Shown here: positions 2,889 through 61,352 of the stretch, piece by piece
How positions within the stretch are numbered: the stretch's first letter is position 1
Layout of the letters: each line of letters starts with the position of its first letter
Assembly (NCBI RefSeq): GCF_006345805.1
Contig: NC_043012.1
Location: 35,278,001 to 35,342,000 of the forward strand
DNA from: Octopus sinensis
Lineage: Eukaryota
DNA length: 64,000 nt
Reading direction: 5' to 3'
Program-made: the position numbers and the translations under genes
The notes under the pieces: generated by a model
The model's database searches: none
Told to the model about the DNA's origin: nothing
Seen by the model: the letters and a program-made list of their open reading frames with translations, nothing else

Positions 2889-4530
2889 AGTTTCTTTATT
2901 GGCCACACAGGGCTGCACACAGGTGGGACAAGTTGCAAGGTAGAGCTTTTCTTTTGGGGGATGAAGAGAACAAAAAAACAAAAGAAAAAAAAGGGGTGGC
3001 GTAGGTTTTCGATCAAGAGGGATCGTAAAAGGGAAGAAAAGAACAAAAACAAAAAAAATTGAATAAAATAAAAAGAATAAAAAGAAAAAAAAAGGAAAGG
3101 AAAAGGAACAAAAGGAAAGAGAAATGAAAAAAAAGAAGAGAAAAAGGGGGGAAAAAAAAGGGGAAGAGGAAAAAAAAGAACGATCAATAGGGATCGGTAT
3201 CACAGTGTTATGATATATGGTGTAAAGGGGAAAGCAAGTAAGGTTATCCGTGGAAGAAAAGCCTACGAAAAAGACACGGTAACCTTGGTCAATATTTATA
3301 TGTTACCACATTTGTTTGCAAGTGGGTAACCCTCTGTTTTCAATTCTCTGGGTTCATAGGATTATGCTCAAGGTGGCTTCGTCATTCATACGTGCCATCC
3401 TTGCTACATTCACCCATCTTTTTTTAAAACATTCGCTAGACAAAACTTGCCTCTCTACTCTCACTTTCCTTTTCAAGTGGTACTTGAAGAAGTTGATGAG
3501 AGATTGACCAGAGAGGAAAGTGTTTGTCTCCAATCCTTTCAGACGCGTCTACCAGATACATTCTTTCGCCATAGCCACAAGGATGATGAAAATAGCTCTT
3601 CCTTCCCGTTTGAAGGAATGAGGCGTGACAATATTGACGATAGACTCAGCTGATAAACCGACTCGTCCCACACGTGACAGCAGTTGTTCGACACAAGCCC
3701 ACAGGTCGGAAATTGTTGGACACTGCACGAGTGCGTGCAGAACGGTTTCGTCGCTCTGACCCATCTCGGGCAGGTCGGCCCCGTGTTTCTCGAGCCGTGT
3801 TGTAGAGCTTATCCCGAACGGGTAGCGCTTCTCGGTAGCACTGCCAGGCCAGGGATCTCTGGAAGGTTGTCCATGGGCCCTGGCCCGAAAGTCGTCCTGA
3901 ACAGGCGGGTCAGGTACTCTCGTCGACGTCCAGGTTCGCCCCGAGCTCGTCGTCGTACCTCCCCTCCACTAATCCCCTATAGAATGCTTTGGTTGTGTTG
4001 AAGTCACTCAAGGTCGACCCAGGACGGCAGATTGCTTGAGAGCAACGCGACACTCGCGGTGCCAATCGCCCTTCCTCGGCCTCTTTTTGATCACGACTGC
4101 AATTCGGTCATGGAGACGAGCTGCGGGAAAGCGTGCCTCACAAACGGCGACCACACCTGTTCACCGTCGTCTACATAGAGCCTGAGATGTCGCAGTCTCA
4201 GCGCGTGTCTGCGCATCATCAACCACAGCATGCCCAGCCCTCCTTTTAACGGGTGTTGACAGCAAATGGATCGCCTGACCATCGGGACGCATCCATTCCA
4301 CAAGAAGCGAAAGAGAATGCGTTGTAGTTTGGTGATGGTAGGGTCGGGACAAGGTACGACGGTCAGGCGGTAGTAGATGACGGACGCGATGTACGTGTTC
4401 GCCACCTCCGCCCGACCTTTTAGGGACAGTTTCCTCTCGGCCCATTGCCGGGCGAGAGAGACCACCCTACTCGTTATCTCGTTCCAGTTCTTCTCCACTT
4501 GGAGGTCCGGACCAAACCAGACCCCGAGCA
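2889..4530 (-). mobile_element. 5'-truncated L1/Tx1-clade LINE (end of ORF2 plus 3' UTR), decayed
   Basis: ORF 4091-4531(-) has LGVWFG...W..RKLSLKGRA.V.N..I.S..YY...FLW...GGLG, typical of the post-RT region of L1/Tx1 ORF2. ORF 3549-3764(-) has the Cys/His motif ETVLHALVQCP. AATAAA lies at 2895-2900(-). An in-frame stop occurs at about 4091. Confidence 0.85.
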
Positions 4531-4601
4531 AGATAGATAGATAGATAGATAGATAGATATGTAGATAGATAGATAGGTAGATAGGTAGATAGATAGACAG
4601 G

Positions 4602-4672
<71 letters not shown>

Positions 4673-4680
4673 GTAGATAA
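4531..4680. repeat. (GATA)n microsatellite flanking the 5' truncation point of the LINE
   Basis: Directly visible tetranucleotide tract. Confidence 0.95.
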
Positions 4681-4909
4681 AAGCTTAGCCACAGTCACAA
4701 GCGAAAATGATTTGGCAGTTAAAGTTATCAATATAATCGCGGGTAGACATAGGCATCCGGAAAGGCCCTCTTACCATTGGTCCAGCGGAGCAACAAGGAT
4801 ATAACAGCCGGGGAGAAAGAGAGTGAGGGGGGTGAGCTGCACTGGTACTAGTCTGGTATTTCTTTTTGGCTGAGTAGAAGAGAGCAACGCGAAATAAAGT
4901 GAAGGACAA

Positions 4910-9691: not shown

Positions 9692-9836
9692 AGAGGTGAG
9701 AGTGAGTGATGGCTGGCAGTAGAGGATGGGGGAAATAGAGGTGAGAGTGAGTGATGGCTGGCAGTAGAGGATGGGGGAAATAGAGGTGAGAGTGAGTGAT
9801 GGCTGGCAGTAGAGGATGGAGGAAATAGAGGTGGGT
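9692..9836 (+). repeat. 45-bp tandem repeat, about 3 copies
   Basis: Unit agaggtgagagtgagtgatggctggcagtagaggatgggggaaat starts at 9692, 9737 and 9782. Confidence 0.9.
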
Positions 9837-14084: not shown

Positions 14085-14460
14085 TCTTTATATATATAAA
14101 ACTGAGAATTCCAGGAATTCCTTGGAACTTTCCAGGAAATCCTCGGATCATTCTGTCGATTTTCCAGGAAGTTGGGAAATCCTCGGAACATTCCAGGAAA
14201 TCTTTGGAGATTTACGGCCGATTTTCCAGGAAGTTGGGATATCATCGGAGCTTTCCATGGAATCATCGGAACTCCCCAAGAAATCCTCGGAACTTTCCAT
14301 GGTCTCATCGGACATTTCCGGGAATTTTCCGATCGATTTTCTGTGAAGTTGGGGAATCCTCGGAACTTTCCATGGAATCCTCGGGACTTTCCAGGAAGTT
14401 TCCGACTGATTTTCCAGGAAGTTAGGTTATTCGAGGAACTTTCCAATAAGTTCCCTACAA
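14085..14460 (+). repeat. Helitron-like 5' terminus followed by a degenerate ~20-bp minisatellite
   Basis: A|TCTTTATATATATAAAACTGAGAA at 14085 matches the start of the element at 16557. It is followed by many variants of ttccaggaaatcctcggaac. Confidence 0.6.
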
Positions 14461-19016: not shown

Positions 19017-20000
19017 CAGGGTGCATAAGGTATTTCAGGACATACGTTTTTTGGGGTCATTGCTGCATTTTTTGCTAACTCTTTATAATCTTTGTTTCAG
19101 AAAATAATAATAGCAGACCCTCAGCTTACTCAAGAAATGAAGAGGCATGCTGTTATTGTGGTTATAAAGGCTGAGCATAGCGATTTAGAAATATCTCGAA
19201 TTTTAAAAGTTGCCACATCTTTTATCTACAAAGTTTGTAAGGAGCTAGAGACTGAAGATGGAAACATATCACCAGTTTCAAAGCATAAAAAGCATTCTAA
19301 ACACTCTGAAATCATCAGAACACCTGAATTTATCCAACAAGTTCAACAGACCATTGATTACATTCCCAGAAAGTTCATGAGGCCAATTGCAAAAGATTTC
19401 CATGTGTCAGAAGGAGCAGTCAGAAATGTTGTCCACGAAGACATCAGAAATAAGTCTTATATGATGAGGAAAGGGGAATTTGTTAGAAAAAGCAAAAGAA
19501 AATCACTACATCAGATCTTAAAGGCCCTTAAATAAACTGAAAAATCCAACAGAAGAAGATTTGATTTGGTTTTTCCATAACGAGAAAAACTTCGACCAAG
19601 ATCAGAAAGTTAACAGAAGAAATGACAGATGGTTATGTGCATACCCTTCTGAAGTTCCAAGTGTTATGCATACAAAATGTCTTGGTTTTAGGGGTTGTCA
19701 GCAATGAAGGACATGTGATGCTTCCTTACTTCTTTCCACAAGGCTATAGAGTTAACTCTGCCACCTATATTGAGGTCCTGGAAACAATTGTTAAGCCCTG
19801 GATAGACAGTGTCTGCAATGGAAGGCCATATGTGTTTCAGTAAGACTCTGCACTATCACACATGGCTCTAGTAACACAGGAATGGACGGCTGAAAATATT
19901 CATGACTCCTAACATTTGGCCGCCTAATTCCCTAGATTTCAGTCCATCGGAGTGTTGCTGAGAGAGAAGTCAATGAACATGCCCATAACACTGAAGAAGA
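19017..20000 (+). mobile_element. Tc1/mariner-superfamily transposon (DD37D/maT-like), decayed and 3'-truncated
   Basis: Starts TA|CAGGGTG. ORF 19092-19535 resembles a transposase HTH region (KRHAVIV...EISRILKV...IAKDFHVSEGAVRNVVHED). Downstream frames give VLGVVSNEG..M.P.FFPQG.RVN...YIEVLE..VKPW...RPYVFQ*DSA and WPPNSLD. Confidence 0.85.
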
Positions 20001-20001
20001 T

Positions 20002-20705
20002 TCATTGAAAACTACCTACGCATCTACTACTGATCGAGCAGGGCCATCTACCTGAAGGGATTTGTGGTTTGCTTGCCTTCCTACTTATTAGGACTTTGGT
20101 TTTAGCTATGTTGACTCTAAGGCCCTTCGATTCTAATCCTTCTTTCCACACTTGAAACTTCTCCTCTAGTTCTGATAGTGACTCAGCAATTAGAGCAAGG
20201 TCATCAACATAGAGGAGCTCCCAGGGGCATCTTGTCTTGAATTCCTCCGTTATTGCCTGGAGGACTATGATAAATAGGAGGGGCCTGAGGACTGAACCTT
20301 GGTGGACCCCTACCTCTACCCTGAATTCTTCACTGTACTTGTTGCCAACGCTTACCTTACTTACAGCATCCCTGTACATGGCTTGTACAGCTCTCACTAA
20401 CCATTCATCTATCCCTAGTTTCCTCATTGACCACCAGATAAGGGATCGGGGGACCCTGTCAAAGGCCTTCTCTATGTCAACGAAAGCCTGGTACAGGGGC
20501 TTATCTTTGGCTAGGTATTTCTCCTGCAGCTCTCTTACCAGAAATATGGCATCAGTGGTACTTTTCCCTGGCATGAAACCAAACTGCATCTCATCCAAGC
20601 TGACTCTCTCCCTAATCAGTTGGGCTATGACCCTCTCCGTAACCTTCATTACCTGATCCAACAGCTTGATACCTCTGTAACTATTTGTATCTAAAGCGTC
20701 ACCTT
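20002..20705 (-). mobile_element. RTE-clade LINE reverse transcriptase fragment
   Basis: ORF 20002-20661(-) has QFGFMPGKSTTDAIF, FVDIEKAFDRVPR, GVHQGSVL.PLLF and LLYVDDL, which are non-LTR RT motifs typical of the RTE clade. Confidence 0.9.
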
Positions 20706-20995
20706 TACATGAAATGAAATGTAAAAGCCAGACTAGATTATTTTATGCGCAACTCCATTGTCTCCCGAGACAAAAAAGGATGCCAACAACAACAACATAT
20801 ATACAAATGTATATATGCGGGCATGTCTGTGTGGTTAGGAAATTTGCTTCCCGCTTACATAGTTTTGGGTTCAGTCCCACTGTGTGGCACCTTGGGCAAG
20901 TGTCTTCTGCTATAGCCTTGGGCTGATTGAAGCTTTGCAATTGAATTTGGTAAGTGGAAGTTACCACTGTGTGTGTACGTGTACTTGTGTGTGTG

Positions 20996-24004: not shown

Positions 24005-24489
24005 GCATGCATGTTTATGTATGTGTATGCACACACACATACACATTAAACATACATACATGCACACATACTTATATATATTAGTATACATGTATGATAT
24101 ATCTATGTGTGTGTATATGCATGTGTATTTGTGTGAATGTATGTGTATATTTTTTTTTTTTACTTGTTTCAGTCATTAGACTGCGGCCATGCTGGAGCAC
24201 CGCCTTTAATCGAGCAACTCGACCCTGGGACTTATTCTTTAGTAAGCCCAGTACTTATTCTATTGGTCTCTTTTGCCGAACCGCTAAGTAATGTATATAT
24301 GTTGTTGTTGTTGTTGTTGTCGTCGTCGTCCTCATCGTCACCATCACCATCATCATCATCATCATCATTATCATCATCATCATCATCATCATCAATTAAT
24401 GTCCAGTTCCCTTGCTGGCATTGCTTACACAATTCAACAGAACCTGATGAAATGTTATCTGGAGTGTATATCAGCAATAATTATAACAG

Positions 24490-24640
24490 TCTGTAGACCC
24501 CTGGTGGTCCATAGACCCCTGAAGATCTGTAGGCCCCTGGTGATCCATATACCCCTGGTGGTCTGTAGGCCCCTGGTCGGTTGCAGACCTCTAGTGGTCC
24601 ATAGACCCCTGGTGGTCTGCAAACCCCTGATGGTCTGCAA
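24490..24640 (+). repeat. 18-bp minisatellite, about 8 copies
   Basis: Variants of tctgtagacccctggtgg in tandem. Confidence 0.85.
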
Positions 24641-25069
24641 AGGTAGTACAGGGTGTTCATGAACATGTTAAGCTGACAGACCTTTCAATATCCTGGGGCC
24701 TGTGGGAAAACTCATTTAAATAAGAGGGTTCCTTGGTAGTGAAAAGCTTGGCAACCACTGGTGTAGAATATGGAGACTTGTCCATCTTCAAGATTCATTT
24801 CCTTTTATTTTACTATTTCACACAACATATTTTTATGGTTGTTTGTTCACTTTGAAACTAGTCAAATAGGCAGACCCTGAAAAAGCTGCTCAGAAAATCA
24901 TGCCTGGTTGCATGTGTAACTGCCAGTACCTTGTGGAGTGGAAACACGTGTAGGTTGTAACAACCATAAAAATATGCTGCATGTAATTATAGAATAAGAG
25001 GGATAAGTCTTAAAGATGAACAAGTCTCCATTTCTACAGCATTATAATTATTGCTATATATATATATAT

Positions 25070-25124
<55 letters not shown>

Positions 25125-25125
25125 T

Positions 25126-25702
25126 AAATTTAGTATCTAATTCTCTCACCCTTATTAATTAATTATAATTATGCTACATTTATTTCTAAATGTAGTATTG
25201 TTTCCGTGAAAGTTTGGCGCGCTGTTGGTAGGGGCATTTGAATTATAACGTCGGATGTAATCAATTGAACCACACGTGTATTTATCGTTATGGTAAAATC
25301 TGGCGTGTGATTGAGTGGATTTCATCCAGATAGTTTTGGCTGAGGAGCTACAAGTGAGTTTTTTGTGAGTAAAATTACATTTAATTCATTAATAGCGAAA
25401 CAATTGTCCCAAAATAATCTGTATTTTTGTTATTTTTTATTTGCCCTGTTCGTGTGAGCTAACAATCGTACTGACTTTCATGGGAAACATGTATTTTTGT
25501 GGTTGAAACCTTTTGGATTTACTAGTGCTAGAGTGAGCCACATAGTGACCACTCTCTTATATTTATTTTTGTATAAAAAAATTATAATATGTTATAAAAT
25601 ATTATAATAATCCAGGTTTCTCGGGGCACTGGGCCACTTGGTGTTGAATAGGTATACTATTAAATTAGTATCTAATTCTCTCACCCTTATTAATTAATTA
25701 TA
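25126..25702 (+). mobile_element. terminally redundant ~535-bp hammerhead-bearing element (retrozyme/Penelope-like), copy 1
   Basis: A ~40-bp direct repeat (tagtatctaattctctcacccttattaattaattata) starts at 25131 and 25666. The element contains an HHR, is flanked by (TA)n, and has a homolog at 38301-38912(-). Confidence 0.8.
25327..25421 (+). ncRNA. type I hammerhead ribozyme, canonical core
   Basis: CAGAUAGUUUUGG CUGAGGA GCUA [42-nt loop] UAGC GAAA CAAUUG UC CCAAAAUAAUCUG. Helix I is 13 bp with one mismatch and one G-U, helix II is GCUA/UAGC, and helix III is the palindrome ACAAUUGU. Predicted cleavage follows the GUC at 25408. Confidence 0.85.
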
Positions 25703-25750
25703 TATAATATATATATATATATGACATTACACACACACACACACACCAAG

Positions 25751-26313: not shown

Positions 26314-26785
26314 ACACGTACACATTCGTGCATATATTTATACAGATATGAGAGTATATTTGACATAGTACTTCAAGGGAAGTAACTCTTCTTATCGCAT
26401 TTTCAGCTCCATCCTTCTCGCTCCCTACTTTCCAATGGACCTTTAAAACTCCGTTTATTTCTGGCTTTGTATTTCATTGCTGCAAAGGGCTCCGGGCACT
26501 GGCCCTTATTGCTGGATATAGGTAAGGATCTCTACCTTTAACACATTACATATTACCCAGTTTTAACACCATGGCCGGCGACGTTGCCTGATGTGCGGAC
26601 AGAAAGGGGCAGCCAGACGCTTTCAATACTTACGGTCGACGGAGCCCAGAGTTTCTCAACAATTCTTTACTTCTGGCCCTCTTAATTCCTACTTTCCTTG
26701 GGTGGGCCCTCATAATCATTCGGTGTTTTAAAAAATCATATGATATAGGATTATAATAGGCGCAGCTATGGCTGTGTGGTAAGAA

Positions 26786-28698
26786 GCGTTCGAAGACGAG
26801 GTCGAGAGATGGATCAAGGAAGGAGTCCCTATCCCGTGCAAGGAGGAGGTGGTGAGCGGAGTGCTACCTCTGATGGCGGTGGTGCAGCCGACGAAGGGAA
26901 CAGTCAGACCGGTGCTGGACTGTAGAGAACTGAACGACCATATATAGTGCCACACGGGAGGCGAGGCGAGGCGACGGACGTTTGCGGCGAGACGTTATGT
27001 GTGTGGAAACAGTCGACCAAGGCTGCGACGATTGTCGACTTGAAGTCGGCATACTTGCAGCTCCATGTGAGTGACAAACTGCGGCGATATCAGCTGGTGC
27101 GGTACAAGGACCGGACGTACTGTTTAACCAGGCTGGGTTTCGGATTGAATTCCGCTCCGAAGATTATGGCGACGGTGCTTAAGTCCGTCCTAGGGAAAGA
27201 GGACAAGATAAGAAAGGCCACCAGTTCCTACATAGACGACATTTTGGTGGAGGAGACTGTAGTGCCAGCCACCGAGGTAGTGAGACATCTGGAGAAGTTC
27301 GGGCTGATTGCAAAGCCACCGGAGTCGTTGGCGCGGGGAGCTGCGCTGGGGCTGAAGCTACGAAGCGATAGATCGGGTGAGTTGGTGTTCCGGAGAGGAA
27401 ATGAAATCCCAGAGCTGAATTCCAGCGTCAGCCGGAGAGAGCTGTTCTCGGTGTGTGAGAAGTTGGTCGGTCACTACCTTGTCGCTGGATGGGAGAGGTG
27501 GCGATGATGCAGGAAATCCTAGAGAGGACGAGAGCGGAAGACCCGATCAGGTGGAACTGGTATGTGGGACCGTTTGGTATGATGCTAGCAGTATAGTGAT
27601 AGGGGTTGTGTTGGAGATCGAAGGCGCTGAAGTGGATGATGCGGCCTGGTTTCGGAAAGCAGACGACTTTAACCACATCAATGTCGCCGAATTAGACACG
27701 GTGCAGAAGGGTGAATTTGGCCCTGAAATGGGGCTATGCTCAATTGAAATCCGGACGGATTCAGCCACCGTGCTCGGCTGGGTAGGATCGGTGATCACCG
27801 ATGAGAGGAGAGTTCGGACGAAAGGTGCCGCAGAGATATTAGTGAAGCGCCGCCTAGGAGTTCTAGGAGAGCTGATTGCCGAGTTCGGACTGAAGCTGAA
27901 CGTGGCTTTCGCGCCTTCGGAGAGAAACATGGCAGACACACTGACCAGCGTGAAAAAGACGTGGCTGGAGGAGCCGGAGGAGGCAAAGAAAGGGATAGCT
28001 GCGGCGTGTCGGTTGGATGACTCCGAACAGAAGAGACTACATGCTATGCATCACTTGGGGGTGGATAGGACCCTGTATCTTGTGAAGATGATTGATGGTG
28101 ACGTCACTAGGAGAAGCATCCGGAAAGTGGTCGGGAGCTGCGACAGGTGTTAGTCCACTGACCCTGCTCCGTGTGGGCATGAACAAGGAAACCTTTCGGT
28201 AGAGCACAACTGGAAGAGACTTGCTGTGGATGTGACGCACTACCGTCAGGAATGTATCTCTCCATGGTCGACTGCGGGCCGGGCCGGATAGCCATTTGGA
28301 GGGAGTTGAGGACGGGCATTGCTGACGAGGTTGCGCAGATTTTGAACAGGATCTTTTTAGAGAAGGGTCCCATGGAAGAACTGCTAATGGACAATGAGGC
28401 AGCGTTTCATTCGGAAGCGTTAAGGGATATGCTCGACCGGCGGAGAGTGCGCCGCTTGTTCAGAGCAGCCTATAGGCCGAGCGATAACGGAATCGTAGAG
28501 AGGCACCATCGGACAGTCAAGGCCATAGCAGAAAGAGGGCACATTTCGCGACACGTCTTAGACCTTCGCAGGATTGTCGCTTCGTCGGATGAAGATTGTG
28601 GAGAGGAGGAGAATGAGGTGCCTAGCTTGAGGAGATCCCGACGCGTAAGGCGCCCTCCCGGTTGGATGGTGGACTTCGATGTGGAGTAGGGGGCGGGA
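26786..28698 (+). mobile_element. Ty3/Gypsy LTR retrotransposon pol remnant (RT-RNase H-integrase), frameshifted
   Basis: RT motifs VDLKSAYLQ, RLGFGLNSAP and YIDD. RNase H motifs WYDASS and IRTDS. Integrase HHCC (HAMHHLG...CDRC) and DNEAAF...NGIVERHHRT. Domain order is RT-RH-IN. A polypurine tract lies at 28688-28698. Confidence 0.9.
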
Positions 28699-28990: not shown

Positions 28991-29869
28991 AGATTAAATA
29001 AATAGAATAAAAAGAGTAAAAAAAAATGGTATAAAAACAGCATCAGATGCAAAAGAAAAACAAGGCAGAAATTCGCGAATTTCGGAAACATTGTGTATGT
29101 GTGAGAGAGAGAATGGTTGAGAAAAGAGAAAGAAAGAGAAAAGATCCTTTAAGTCTTGTCAGACAACTTGTCTGAAACAAAAAGGTTACAAGTTTATATC
29201 ATTTTATAATGTTCGCTTTCTAGAAAAGATTAAGACAAAATGGTCATGCCTGGAACGCCTTTTCTCACAGATCTATTACAATCAGAGCTAACCTGTGGTT
29301 AAAGCAATATTCTTCGCTGAATGATGAAGCAGCTAAAGTTAAAGAAAAGTTGAAAGAAGAAAGGATAGCAAATATCCATATTCCAAATATTGGGGTTCCC
29401 TTATAAAATAATATAAACTTGTAACACATTCTACCAGGATACGAAGTTTAAAAGTTTAGTTACAAATAACTATTTTTTAAATGTTCCGATCAAAGTGAAA
29501 AGATCCGCTGTTTCTTTTTCTTTTTTTTCTCTTTTCGCAAAACATTTCTCCATTTTTCCTTTTCAAGAAATATCGTTGAAACTGAACTGTTGTCGGTCGC
29601 CTTTAGTTGAGAGTGCTGTCTGTTTCAATGGAACATATCGCAACATATCAATTCTCACCTTCTTTCCCCTTGAACCTTAGATCAGCACCTTGTCATCCCC
29701 TTCGCTAATCCCTGGCTGACTCTTTGAATTTGCAGGTAACTGAGTTTATTCACAGCAAGTCTAGGGGATGCTGTTAGTCTTCAGTCGGGTGATCTTTCCC
29801 GTTGAGCATATGTAATAACCAGTTCCAGATTCATTTCAAAGAAGTAACACTAAATTTTTTGATAAAAAA

Positions 29870-31077
29870 AGGGAAGAGATCGCCATAACAGACGATAGTG
29901 ATGATGAAGCTGACATAAGCCAACAAGACATACATTGTCAAACAGATTTGGCTCACGAAAATGCTTGTTTTCCCCAGCTAAAACCTGAATTTAACAAAGT
30001 TTTAAAGAAGGTAAGAAATATTTCAAAACTTTTCCGTAAATCTCCTACAAAAAATGAAATTTTGCAAGATTTTGTACGAGCGAACTTTGATAACAGAGAA
30101 TATAAACTTATACTAGATTGCAGAACTTGGTGGAATGTCACATTCCATATGATTGAGAGATTTTTGAAATTAAAAAGCTGTATTCCATATGCTGTACGAG
30201 CAGAACTTTCCACAGATGCCCATCGCTGACGAAGAATGGAAATCTCTCAATTTACTATATGAAATTCTGCATTCATTTGAAATTATTTTGAAGGCTGTTT
30301 GCGCTGATGATACGGGTTTACTGAAAGCGGAATATTCTATAGAATTTTTACTGAATAAACTTAATATCGTCGGCAACCCTTTGGCTCTAAATCTTCGTGA
30401 AAGACTTATGCATAGATATAATAAAAGAAGAAATGTCGAAACCTTGGCTCTCTTGAGGTATTTACATAACCCAAGGAAATTTAAGGGTGAGTCAATTTCT
30501 GGACCTTTTCTATTTTTTAACGAAACAACATTTAAGGAAGTATGCTGAACAAACATATAGGAGATTATTTCCTGAACATGATGCTGAGAACACAACAGAA
30601 TTATACAAAGAAAATGAAATAGGAGGGAACCTAAAAACAAGTGTTACTGTTGTCCCATCTACTTATGAAGGTAATGAACTCATTCGTGAATACACAAGCG
30701 CAATGAAGAAAATGAATGAAGAGCCCAAGATGGTAACAGATGGGTTTGAAATCTCTAAAGAATTCGGGTACTATTTAAGAAGAGTGGTCCAGGTGCGCGC
30801 ACTCGCTAGTCGTGACTAGTCGAGCCTACAACGACGACCTAGCAAAGTAAATAAAACACAAAATGAATAATTTTTTTTACACAAAGTAAATGATTTTTTA
30901 AAAACAAAGTAAATAAAACACAAAAACACAAGGTAAGGATCGACTAGTCACGACTAGCTGGCGCGAGTGCGCGCACCGGGACCACTCTTCTTAAGTAGGA
31001 CCCGCGAAAACCGGTTTTGAGAATTAGTTATACTTGAACTCGGTTTTGGGAATTATCGGTTTTTTTTGCGAGCCCTA
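29870..31077 (+). mobile_element. hAT DNA transposon remnant (transposase fragment and right terminus)
   Basis: Frameshifted ORFs 29948-30548 give KVRNISKLFRKSP..NEILQ...LILDCRTWWN.T..MIERFL.LK, resembling the hAT TRWNS motif. The terminus ...GCGAGCCCTA at 31068-31077 is a TAGGG-type TIR. Confidence 0.75.
30765..31004. mobile_element. MITE-like element with ~65-bp TIRs nested in the hAT remnant
   Basis: cgggtactatttaagaagagtggtccaggtgcgcgcactcgctagtcgtgactagtcga is mirrored by tcgactagtcacgactagc..gcgagtgcgcgcaccgggaccactcttcttaagtaggacccg. Confidence 0.8.
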
Positions 31078-36729: not shown

Positions 36730-37172
36730 TGTATATATACATATATAAGTGTTACATCATCTGCATGATGTGGAAAATATTCCATTAGCATTGTCCAAAT
36801 GATGTTGGCATCACCTTTAAGATACACCCAAGACTTGGATCCCATGCTATTTGCCCACAACATAATTCATACTTGTATCACATAACAACAATACGGCACA
36901 ATTATTTCACCTCATTTGGCCCCGCTCTCTTTAACATTACACCAAAACACATTAAATCAGAAACAGAACCCATAAAGTTGAAGAAGTCTTTGGGCAAATT
37001 CCTCCAAAAGATCCCAGATAAACCTCCTACACCCAGATATGTCTCCATAAACAATAACTCTCTCCTTGAGTGGACCATGTTGTCCGATTCCTGATTTAAA
37101 TGGATTTGTTAGGTGGTGCTATTAAGTCAGTCATGGCCTAGGCCAATACTAGCCGAAACTTATCAAAGTAAG
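36730..37172 (+). mobile_element. CR1/L2-like LINE 3' fragment
   Basis: ORF 36873-37094 has F...GPALFN..P..IK....KLKKSLGKFLQKIPD.P...NNSL, similar to LINE ORF2 C-termini. The tail ggtggtgctattaagt...catggcct.ggccaatact recurs at about 39900-39970. Confidence 0.65.
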
Positions 37173-37673: not shown

Positions 37674-37875
37674 TGGGACCAGGCAAACAGAAGAAAGAGT
37701 GAGAGAAAGTTGTGGCGAAAGAGTACAGCAAGGATTGCCACCACCCACTGCCGGAGCCTCATGGAGCTTTTTAGGTGTTTTTGTTCGATAAACACTCACA
37801 ACGCCCAGTCTGGGAATCGAAACTGCGATCCTACGACCGCAAGTCTGCTGCCCTAACCATTGGGCCATTGCGCCT

Positions 37876-37878
<3 letters not shown>
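37674..37878 (-). mobile_element. tRNA-derived SINE (family D)
   Basis: Minus-strand head GGAGGCGCAATGGCCCAATGGTTAGGGC...GTTTCGATTCCCAG with A and B boxes. Confidence 0.7.
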
Positions 37879-37915
<37 letters not shown>

Positions 37916-37983
37916 TACTATATATAATATTATATATTAATATAATATATATATATATACATACATACAATACATACATACAT

Positions 37984-38028
<45 letters not shown>

Positions 38029-38300
38029 ACATACATAATATATTATATATATTATAAATATTATATATATATATATATTATATATACATATTACTATATA
38101 CTTATATATATATATATAATGGTATGTATGTATGTTGTATGTTGTTATGTATGTATGTATGTATGTATATATATTATATAATAATTATATATACATACAT
38201 CATACATACATACATACAACCTACATACATTATATATATCTAATTAATATTATACCATACATATCTACATACATATATATATATATAATATATATATTAT

Positions 38301-38912
38301 ATAATTAATTAATTAGGGTGAGAGAATTAGATACTAATTTAATAGTATATATATTTATTCAACACCAAGTGGCCTAGTGCTCCGCGAAACCTGGATATTT
38401 ATAATATTTTATAATATAGTACATATTTTTACAAAATAAATATAAGAGAGTGGTCACTATATGGCTCACTCTAGCACCAGTTAATCCAAAAGGTTTCATT
38501 CAACCACAAAAATACATGTTCCCATGAAAGTCAGTACTATGTTATTAGCTCCCACGGACAGGGAATAAAAATAACAAAAATACAGATATTTTGGGACATT
38601 GTTTCGCTATTAATGAATTAATGTATTTTACTTACAAAAAAATCCACTTTAGCTCGTCAGCCAAAAACTATCTGGATGAAATCCACTCAATCACACGCCA
38701 GATTTTACCATAACGATAAATACGCGTGTGGTTCAATTGATACATCCGACGTTATATTCAAATGCCCCAACTAACAGCGCGCCAAACTTCACGGAAACAA
38801 TACAAGCATTTAAATAAATGCAGCCATAATTAAATTATTAATAAGGGTGAGAGACTTTTGGATTAACTGGTGCTAGAGTAGCCATATAGTGCCACTCTCT
38901 TATATTTATTTT
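38301..38912 (-). mobile_element. terminally redundant hammerhead-bearing element, copy 2, with an inverted 5' segment
   Basis: Reverse complement of 25126-25702 with the same terminal redundancy (38301-38340 and about 38827-38852). 38855-38912 is an inverted copy of internal 38433-38492. Flanked by (TA)n. Confidence 0.8.
38589..38666 (-). ncRNA. type I hammerhead ribozyme
   Basis: Minus strand UUUUGG CUGACGA GCUA [loop] UAGC GAAA CAAUG UC CCAAAA. The N7 position differs from copy 1 (C vs G), and helix III is one nt shorter. Confidence 0.75.
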
Positions 38913-39685
38913 ATATATATATATATATTATATATATAATGGCTTGATGTCAGGTAGCTAGAAATCTGATATTGTCTAAGACTGTAAAATTGGTAGAAGG
39001 CATACTCTAGTGTGACTTTTTAGGTTTCCAAATGCTGTGGCAGTCTAGGAGGGAATTTACCATTGTGTCTGTCACGCTCGGTGCCAAGGTAGAATTACGT
39101 CCAAAGTTTTAAGTTTCACTGATGCCACGTCTGGTAGTTGAGTTGTTGTTGAGGAATTAAGTGGAGTGAAAATATCTGTAGGCTGCAAGTGTGTATGTGT
39201 ATCTTATATAGGTGTATATGTATACAAACATACATACATACATATATGCATGAATGCATGCTATGTGTGTGTTTGTGTCTGTGTATATGTGTGTATCTAT
39301 ATACATCAGCGTAGGTGTGGCTGTGTGGTAAGTAGCTTGCTTACCAACCACATAGTTCCGGGTTCAGTCCCACTGCGTGGCACCTTGGGCAAGTGTCTTC
39401 TTCTATAGCCTCGGTTCAGCCAAAGCCTTGTGAGTGGATTTGGTATATATGTATATATATGTGTGTGTTTATATATGTGTGTGTCTGCGTTTGTCCCCTT
39501 ACCCTCGATTGACAATCGATGCTGGTGTGTTTATGTCACCGTAACTTAAAAACATATTAAAATACCTTGTTTATAAATTGTTTGTATATATATATATATA
39601 TTATTATTATTACATATTATTATTATTATTATTTTATATTATATTCTATGTGTGTATATACATACATACATACATACATCATACA

Positions 39686-59780: not shown

Positions 59781-61352
59781 CTAGGAACATTGTAAATAGG
59801 GCTGTGGACAAAGTGGACACGAGGAGATGGAACTATTGCCTACTTGATAAAATGGTAAATAGCTGTAGTACTGACTGCCGCCACTGGAGTTATTGTAAGG
59901 TCCATAGAATACTTGGTCCAAAATCAAATTATTTAAGTTGTCAAACTGTGGTAGTTGAAGGTATTTACTCTGGGCTTTTTGTTCCTGTTCTAGCAAGATC
60001 TCACAAGCCAACTGATGTATAAGATTTAGTGTCTGTCGTCGTTCATGGCCCATCAAACAGATTGTGCTGTCGTCAACCACTCGGTAGAGCGTCATCAAGT
60101 ATTCATATTTCAGATCCTCCTCACCACTAAAATGGTTTGCCAGATAAGCATCCAGCTTCTGTTTTTGTTGCGACAAGTCGCTGAAATCTATGAAAAACCT
60201 AGAACACATGTAGCGCTCCATGGCACGGATGTCCACGTTGCCAGCTGGTGTGTAGCGCCTCACTAACAGGTTACAGTATTTCAGTAAACCTCCACCCCGT
60301 ATCTCTTCTGGGTTTCGTGTGGCAATTAGCTTTTCAGTTAAGTGGAACCAGGCTTGTGAAAAGTCCCCGTACACACTCTCGGCTTTCACAGTTGGGTAAA
60401 AATGTTCGCTGGTCGGAGTGTTGGAAACTTCGTAGAACGTTAACAAACTGTCCAAGATTATCTGAAAGGAATCAACACTAAATTCAAACTGACGTTTCAT
60501 TTTGTCCACAAACTTAAGCTCCACATTTTTACCTTTATTATTTGAGAGTGATATCAAACTCCAACGGTCGCCATGTTCATTGCACACTTTTACCATTTTC
60601 TGAACGTAAGCTTCTTTCAAGCTGCAACTGGACATCCTGTCTTTACTGACGCCAGCTGGCAGAAAGTCTAAGAGGCAGCCAAGAACACAATTCTTCACTT
60701 TTTGAAGTTCATTCTGGTTGGAGAGATCAATCCCAAATATCAAGTCCAAGTCATTATAAGTCTGAGAAGTATCTGTCTCTAAGACATAGCTGGCGGCACC
60801 GCCGTTTAGACGCATATCTCGAACATGGACCCCTTCAGATTTCAGCTTTTGGCGAACCAGTTGGATGAGATCCTTCAGTTTAACATCAAGGGTAGGGAAA
60901 TTGCCACGACCATGGATTGGTATGGATGCCTCCATCACTTCCACGAGTCGCATCAATTGGTCATATTCCAAGACCTTGAAACGACAAGATGACTGTGTGT
61001 CGTCAAGTAATTCTGTTGAGCCGAAAACAAACATCTGATCACTTAAACTTGAGCCATCATTGTTGCAGTCCTCTTCATCGTAGGTTTCAATCTGCAGCTC
61101 ATCTCCTGCCTCTTCTTCCTCGATGTCAACATCAGCGACTGGCTCTACAGTAACCACAGTAACAGCATCAAGGTCTGCAGTCGGCGAAGGTGTCTCAGGT
61201 GTTGTCTGGGTGTCATCGGTGTCCTTATCAACCGCAGCAGTGGTGTTGGTGTTGGTGGTGCAACAGACTGCAGTGTCTGCAGGTGCAACTGAAGCAGAAG
61301 TGGCTGAAGAACCACTAGATATGGCAACAGCACAAACACTATCTGTAGCCAT
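59781..61352 (-). CDS. TENT5: terminal nucleotidyltransferase 5 (FAM46 family non-canonical poly(A) polymerase), 523 aa, single coding exon
   Basis: Uninterrupted ORF with FAM46 signature motifs: [17 protein letters not shown]..., DLDLIF (NTase DxD), [63 protein letters not shown] and [11 protein letters not shown]. The first ATG at 61352 is in gcaATGg context with an in-frame TAA 7 codons upstream. The ORF-track start at 61358 is a TTG. Confidence 0.96.

Follow-up and report, generated by a model that had tools for sequence, protein, structure and literature searches.

The window, that is the whole stretch of 64,000 nucleotides of Octopus sinensis DNA analysed here, holds an intact single-frame open reading frame of 523 amino acids for a terminal nucleotidyltransferase of the TENT5/FAM46 type (59784–61352, minus strand; Pfam PF07984). 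It falls into a 90%-identity cluster that includes terminal nucleotidyltransferase 5C from Octopus bimaculoides and Argonauta hians, the two named members out of five, which assigns the window to an octopod. Elsewhere lie a broken LTR-retrotransposon-like pol (26926–28689, plus strand), with weak matches to RVT_1, DUF7047 and rve spread over three frames, and a reverse transcriptase fragment (20005–20742, minus strand; RVT_1) that we take to resemble an RTE-type LINE. Four further frames, none with a Pfam match, presumably resemble fragments of L1/Tx1 (3549–4684, minus strand), mariner-like (19089–19840, plus strand), hAT-like (29819–30819, plus strand) and CR1-like elements (36789–37094, plus strand). 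We also assume SINE-like repeats at 37700–37880 (minus strand), 39300–39500 (minus strand) and 24170–24290 (plus strand). Minisatellites occur at 24489–24637 (period 18), 14114–14445 (period 21/62/73) and 9692–9833 (period 45).

The subject of this analysis is a short repeat of which the window contains two copies. Copy 1 (25127–25702, plus strand) is 576 bases long, non-coding, has 33% G+C and consists of a 535-bp unit followed by a 41-bp tail. The tail (25662–25702) is identical at 40 of 41 positions to the start of the unit (25127–25167); as this 5' repeat passes into (TA)n, its edges can be placed only to within a few bases. A (TA)n microsatellite, the target, precedes the copy (25055–25126) and a shorter TA run follows 25702; a target-site duplication is not distinguishable within these flanks. 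A reading made earlier from the sequence alone had described a non-coding unit embedded in (TA)n with a terminal redundancy of period 535 bp, and both descriptions hold. No frame of the unit contains an open reading frame, and its longest stop-free stretch of 76 codons has no Pfam match. Neither nhmmer nor the listed matches of a low-stringency blastn search contain further relatives of the unit in the window. By eye, 26490–26540 (plus strand) looks like unit positions 25615–25660; it appears in neither search and is probably a chance likeness.

Copy 2 lies on the minus strand at 38300–38854, about 13.3 kb away, and is 89% alike to copy 1, its hammerhead core beginning at 38660. The second copy on the other strand, with a different base at N7, had also been noticed in the sequence-only reading and is borne out. 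It begins 15 bases inside the 5' repeat, of which the last 26 bases are kept, and ends with the full tail, so that the starts of both copies fall within 15 bases of the same point. Behind its tail follows a TA-rich microsatellite (37878–38299), and directly behind that TA run sits what we take to be the tRNA-like head of the SINE-like repeat at 37700–37880. Apart from (TA)n, the sequences around copy 1 and around copy 2 show no relationship. Relative to copy 1 there are 28 substitutions, 14 inserted bases and 20 deleted bases, some of which may be assembly errors because 14 of the 20 fall in homopolymer runs. Helix III of its hammerhead is one base short, so the palindrome is lost.

At the 5' end of copy 2 we found an element that the earlier reading did not contain: an inverted piece of the unit (38855–38911, plus strand), which corresponds to 25510–25569 (unit positions 384–443) and runs into (TA)n. 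It carries all three of the substitutions that distinguish copy 2 from copy 1 in that stretch. By twin-priming logic this piece might be held to prove that the template was tandem or circular; we dropped the argument because Penelope-like elements (PLEs) make duplicated inversions anyway.

Each copy contains one hammerhead motif. A strict descriptor found exactly these two in the window; any match arose in 2 of 300 dinucleotide-shuffled windows, and none of the 300 gave a match with a palindromic helix III. The motif of copy 1 (25327–25421, plus strand; predicted cut after 25408) is of type I, with CUGANGA, GAAA and UH elements and helices I–III, closed in helix I. It had been called fully canonical, with a 13-bp helix I. 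The core (CUGAGGA at 25340–25346, GAAA at 25397–25400), the palindromic helix III (25400–25407) and C17 at 25408 stand, but in helix I (25327–25339 with 25409–25421) only 12 of the 13 positions pair, the other being an A-A mismatch. The large AU-rich loop II that had seemed unusual gives way to a different picture. Beyond helix II proper (25347–25350 with 25393–25396), its 42 bases are predicted to continue the helix through 25353–25360 with 25383–25390 and 25364–25368 with 25375–25379 (4 bp, a 2x2 loop, 8 bp, a loop, 5 bp). The modelled feature is likely a long helix II of the sort reported for PLE hammerheads in the available part of PMC4209133. Rfam's hammerhead models, proposed earlier as a check, did not recover the motif: none is among the four matches at E up to 10 in 25100–25720, nor among the 150 of 217 matches listed for the whole window, likely because of the long helix II insert.

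Would such a ribozyme cut? The catalytic fold is predicted to lie 2.7 kcal/mol above the minimum (−23.0 vs −25.7). Closing helix III in the monomer is predicted to be unfavourable (−23.0 closed vs −24.0 open), and its self-complementary duplex between two molecules would be worth −6.4 kcal/mol. These models predict a hammerhead that is weak as a monomer and cuts as a dimer via the palindromic helix III; a copy with a single hammerhead cannot cut out a monomer. An activating contact involving U1.7 has been described (PMC11875169, in part available), and the U at position 1.7 might form a contact of that type with an A that closes the internal loop of helix II. Two other candidate signals were set aside: a splice donor inside helix II (25365), as no contig has a spliced joint, and a weak A-box-like match overlapping the ribozyme core, taken as chance. 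A pattern search identified no B box and no other promoter signal in the unit.

The features of this repeat touch on two groups of known elements. PLEs are described as leaving a 30–40-bp tail, an inverted truncated piece by the 5' end and a (TA)n bias that hides target duplications (available text of PMC8557442). Both window copies have a 41-bp tail and a (TA)n microsatellite target, and one of the two has the adjacent 5' inverted piece. According to the accessible sections of PMC11167929, the PLE protein introduces nicks into both strands of AT-rich DNA, and reverse transcription starts inside the RNA. For an anole PLE the same source describes the tail as the interval between two start sites that lie early in the following unit; the ribozyme did not have to cut for this, and uncut RNA was the main substrate in vitro. 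By analogy with the anole PLE, we infer that 25662–25702 would be the region in which reverse transcription starts. PLE hammerheads are characterized by a long helix II, a palindromic helix III and poor cutting (PMC4209133 and PMC6765202, as far as available), and the minimal ones among them by an extra base between positions 9 and 10.1 and a short helix I (PMC4209133). The octopus unit shares the G10.1-C11.1 pair, the long helix II and the palindromic helix III with PLE hammerheads as described there. It departs from the minimal type: its helix II follows the core directly and its helix I is long (12 pairs).

The endonuclease-bearing PLEs (Penelope/Poseidon, Neptune and Hydra; available parts of PMC8557442 and PMC11167929) share the tail, the 5' inverted piece and (TA)n with the octopus unit. 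They code for protein, whereas the unit is ORF-less and only 535 bp long; an ORF with a telomerase-like reverse transcriptase and a GIY-YIG endonuclease is absent from the unit and from beside either copy. Non-autonomous Chlamys PLEs, for example MRC1 of Chlamydomonas, are short and protein-free as well; according to the available text of PMC8557442 they form pseudo-LTRs and depend on autonomous PLEs. Unlike the octopus unit, these mostly lack canonical hammerheads, live in a green algal host and are often multicopy head-to-tail. Hydra-1_Obim of Octopus bimaculoides (PMC8557442 supplement) is an octopus PLE with (TA)n preference and a hammerhead near its 3' end, but it measures 2,507 bp, has an ORF, and its hammerhead has different helices and an extra core base. 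Thirty-one recently active Penelope families with 336 insertions are reported for Octopus vulgaris (PMC13282606); ribozymes are unmentioned in the available main text of that paper.

The second group are the non-LTR retrozymes, whose defining traits are units in tandem and a circular RNA; coral, mussel and axolotl have them (PMC7229834, reviewed in PMC7761336, both in their available portions). In the accessible text of a recent preprint they are derived from PLE pseudo-LTRs, with units of 51–972 bp and solo monomers counted (bioRxiv 10.64898/2026.07.22.740005). Measured against the available accounts in PMC7229834 and this preprint, the octopus unit is alike in being ORF-less, a few hundred bases long (535 bp) and below 45% G+C (33%), with one type I hammerhead and a two-pair helix III, and in occurring in a lineage that also has PLEs; a self-paired RNA, another retrozyme trait, is predicted for copy 1 (z −6.2) but hardly for copy 2 (z −1.5). 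Retrozymes are tandem, whereas both window copies are single and no array is seen in the window. The PLE tail, the 5' inversion and the (TA)n targets of the octopus copies are not described for retrozymes in the available text of either source. Because the two occur together and resemble each other in sequence, PLE proteins have been proposed to move animal retrozymes, the mechanism being stated as open (available parts of PMC7229834 and of the preprint).

A literature search, with repeat libraries outside its range, turned up no account of a retrozyme in cephalopods and none of the 535-bp unit. Cephalopods are absent from the available main text of PMC7229834 and from the 35 species of the preprint as far as its text is available. 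Repeat libraries may already hold the family under a Penelope, SINE or unknown label, and it may also be among the entries in the supplements of PMC7229834 and bioRxiv 10.64898/2026.07.22.740005 or in the Zenodo library that accompanies PMC13282606.

Does the repeat spread as a unit of its own? Part of it is held by 20 of the 24 listed sequencing runs (10 studies, 5 organism labels). Four of the 24 were compared in detail: X9, X15 and X8 as contigs, and X22 as the only raw-read run. The contigs of X9, X15 and X8 (89, 154 and 344 records, three organism labels) cover 29 of 29 bins of the unit with many variants. Those running over the unit ends number 1 of 89, 2 of 154 and 8 of 344, and only 0–4% of the aligned material runs on into unlike sequence. 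Two X9 contigs spanning 25146–25260 supply all the depth (105.4) at 25186–25225, and a further one leads on to the hammerhead (25231–25343). Since these contigs overlap tail, body and hammerhead, the three follow one another without an ORF; the tail–body contigs, however, carry only 18–22 tail bases, fewer than the 31 required to count as a bridge. Contigs from three of the four runs lead from tail to hammerhead without an ORF, and the repeat is therefore a family of short units and not just a PLE end. The earlier suggestion of a non-autonomous ribozyme retroelement family, rather than the mere terminus of a PLE, is supported by these multi-copy, ORF-less contigs across runs in an octopod. In X8, 144 of the 344 contigs are at least 99% alike to copy 1, and one X9 contig shows an additional microsatellite-flanked 5' end at 25426. 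The contig joints listed include no go-back joint, though one could go unnoticed since contigs built from 31-mers are interrupted at the 41-bp repeat; one opposite-strand joint is among those listed (X8, depth 5).

Some contigs diverge from the unit. A 529-nt contig of X15 (depth 20.5) matches only 25130–25198, which comprises the tail and the hairpin after it, at 10 differences, and then becomes unlike; it is a candidate for an autonomous partner or a sister family. Diverged contigs that match 25231–25356 only, among them one of 256 nt in X9, or 25231–25316 offer further leads for a longer relative. The raw genomic reads of X22 (1,934 million letters) give no true match to the unit, even though the run has the same organism label as the best holder. 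Its 389 partial matches are all below 90% and confined to the AT-rich stretch 25575–25611, from which we conclude that X22 lacks the family, a result that counts against the reading favored below. These 389 matches share loose ends from one abundant unrelated sequence. Exact-motif scans of metagenome contigs, viral contigs and prokaryote genomes gave no match, as expected for an animal repeat.

The variation among family members bears on a possible RNA stage. From 40 listed variants, 5 seen only in the false matches of X22 were dropped, which leaves 35. Transitions among the 35 are biased (18 A/G vs 6 C/T; p 0.005), with 12 G-to-A and no C-to-T, although X9 shares several of copy 1's letters, so that the A/G counts carry no direction of change. 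We rejected the notion of A-to-G differences confined to copy 1, as X9 contigs have the letters of copy 1 at 25227, 25625 and 25631, which makes these sites shared alleles. Predicted G-U pairs account for 7 of 9 paired G-to-A sites, compared with 22 of 78 paired G overall (p 0.0015). Among these sites are long-range pairs and three pairs of the extended helix II, where G-U changes to A-U. A double change at 25176/25193 restores a pair and occurs at equal depth in one X9 contig; another falls in helix I (25335/25413) and is unphased. Counted singly, 12 of the 35 variants break a pair vs 16.8 expected, a borderline result (p 0.052). None of the 35 hits the 14 fixed core positions, which is not significant (chance 0.39), and N7 varies.

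This strand-biased variation at predicted G-U pairs points to a folded RNA stage. RNA editing is extensive in cephalopods, and the A/G bias fits either A-to-I editing of stems that was fixed by retrotransposition or tolerance of wobble pairs; the strand bias provides a testable link to RNA editing. The predicted fold contains a long-range domain around the hammerhead (25197–25490, plus strand), with a closing helix of about 25197–25216 with 25470–25490, and variants at 25206, 25227 and 25474 keep its pairs. The predicted fold of copy 1 scores z −6.2 as a circle, in which helices I and II form, and z −7.5 as a line. Its antisense reaches z −4.2, and copy 2, at z −1.5, folds no better than chance. 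Fold scores by themselves are modest evidence, because four of six control windows reach z −3 or lower (−11.9 in one with (TA)n, +0.4, −3.0, −3.9, −3.8 and −1.7).

How can these observations be brought together? The window repeat probably represents an undescribed octopod family, a non-autonomous PLE derivative that is retrozyme-like. It is likely that a PLE protein moves this ORF-less unit, be the template a line or a circle. With a probability of about 0.55 we favor a non-autonomous PLE that is copied in trans by a PLE protein from linear RNA slightly longer than one unit. The locus would be transcribed from the 5' repeat through the tail, by its own promoter or by read-through, and the RNA would adopt a branched fold. 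A PLE reverse transcriptase/GIY-YIG protein would then bind the tail and nick (TA)n DNA, reverse transcription would start inside the RNA at the 3' edge of the tail, and copying back to the upstream repeat would regenerate unit and tail. As both would be regenerated, a solo copy could give rise to others with no circular stage. Priming on the second target strand would sometimes leave a 5' inverted piece, as in copy 2. With a hammerhead whose monomer is predicted to cut weakly, uncut RNA would be the source of full-length copies.

On this point we depart from the sequence-only reading, which took the monomer plus partial repeat as the trace of a circular RNA: tail, 5' inversion and (TA)n are marks already described for PLEs in the available text of PMC8557442. 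By this analogy the best reading of the 41 bp repeated at the ends is the 30–40-bp tail known from PLEs, not the trace of a circle. It would be what PLE copying leaves when the RNA slightly exceeds one unit, which does not require a circle. As the tail is repeated 535 bp upstream, the unit would measure 535 bp and have no room for an ORF. A partner PLE was looked for in the window, and the GIY-YIG domain is absent from the 78 of 260 complexity-filtered frames scanned. Nothing in the present data separates a linear from a circular template.

The contending explanations differ mainly in the template and in whether the unit spreads by itself. A canonical non-LTR retrozyme would have tandem arrays elsewhere that are transcribed and cut by paired hammerheads into 535-nt monomers; a host ligase would circularize these, a PLE enzyme would copy one round plus 41 bases, and the window copies would be solo offspring. 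Size, low G+C, the one type I hammerhead per unit and the two-pair helix III fit retrozymes as far as the available sources describe them, and the putative U1.7 contact with the helix II loop A (PMC11875169) could activate the cut. Against this, each window copy is a single unit carrying one hammerhead, the listed joints contain no go-back joint (with the caveat of the 41-bp repeat), and it is not obvious why copying round a circle should end 41 bases into a second round. The predicted circular fold with helices I and II formed would suit a circle, but the linear prediction scores equally well. Similarly, an inverted piece from unit positions 384–443 bearing the substitutions of copy 2 itself is what a circle or tandem would give, yet duplicated inverted pieces are normal for circle-free PLEs (PMC8557442, available text), and in vitro cleavage was seen for just one of nine Xenopus dimers according to the accessible part of bioRxiv 10.64898/2026.07.22.740005. 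We regard this route as possible but somewhat unlikely. A related version, in which an active cephalopod retrozyme has its circular RNA copied by a Penelope enzyme, the inversions stem from the same circle and A-to-I editing becomes fixed, appears unlikely to us; if true, it would be the first direct substrate–enzyme pair for the movement of animal retrozymes.

It might also be argued that the copies are stumps of an autonomous PLE, the unit being a pseudo-LTR with a short partial tandem that is left by 5'-truncated insertions and has no spread of its own. Every landing mark matches autonomous PLEs (PMC8557442, in the text available), PLE insertions are mostly 5'-truncated with a single terminal repeat (accessible part of the preprint), and the X15 529-nt and X9 256-nt contigs could belong to a longer relative. 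Simple truncation, however, would not leave the tail sequence a second time 535 bp upstream; the start points of the two copies almost coincide, no ORF remnant is left in the unit, and few contigs cross its ends. Three 13–14-base motifs of the unit are moreover absent from the PMC8557442 supplement, which has Octopus Naiad and Hydra consensuses, and the Hydra-1_Obim hammerhead therein has different helices. Such an origin is in our view quite unlikely, and the finding would then come down to routine annotation. Least convincing is a dead repeat with a fossil hammerhead, spread by DNA duplication in TA-rich sequence. The degraded copy 2, helix III included, is in line with it, and no holder run is recorded as RNA, which is not evidence on expression. 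The unrelated flanks beyond (TA)n, the strand-biased and pair-keeping variation that points to an RNA stage, and the many X8 contigs nearly identical to copy 1 speak against it and make it highly improbable.

What would the copying of a linear RNA by a PLE protein in trans mean for our view of these elements? Protein-free PLE hitchhikers are known as a kind, and we found none described for cephalopods. The octopus family is an ORF-less hammerhead unit that bears the physical marks of PLE integration. Its 576-base copy could go straight into the in vitro PLE assay outlined in the available text of PMC11167929, in which linear and circular templates could be compared and the ribozyme seen to help or to hinder.

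A last observation concerns read depth. In X9 and X15, which are only guessed to be RNA and whose depth we do not count as evidence for expression, the summed depth in the middle of the unit (25286–25545) is 3–10x that at the ends, with a peak just 3' of the predicted cut; the profile of X8 is flatter.
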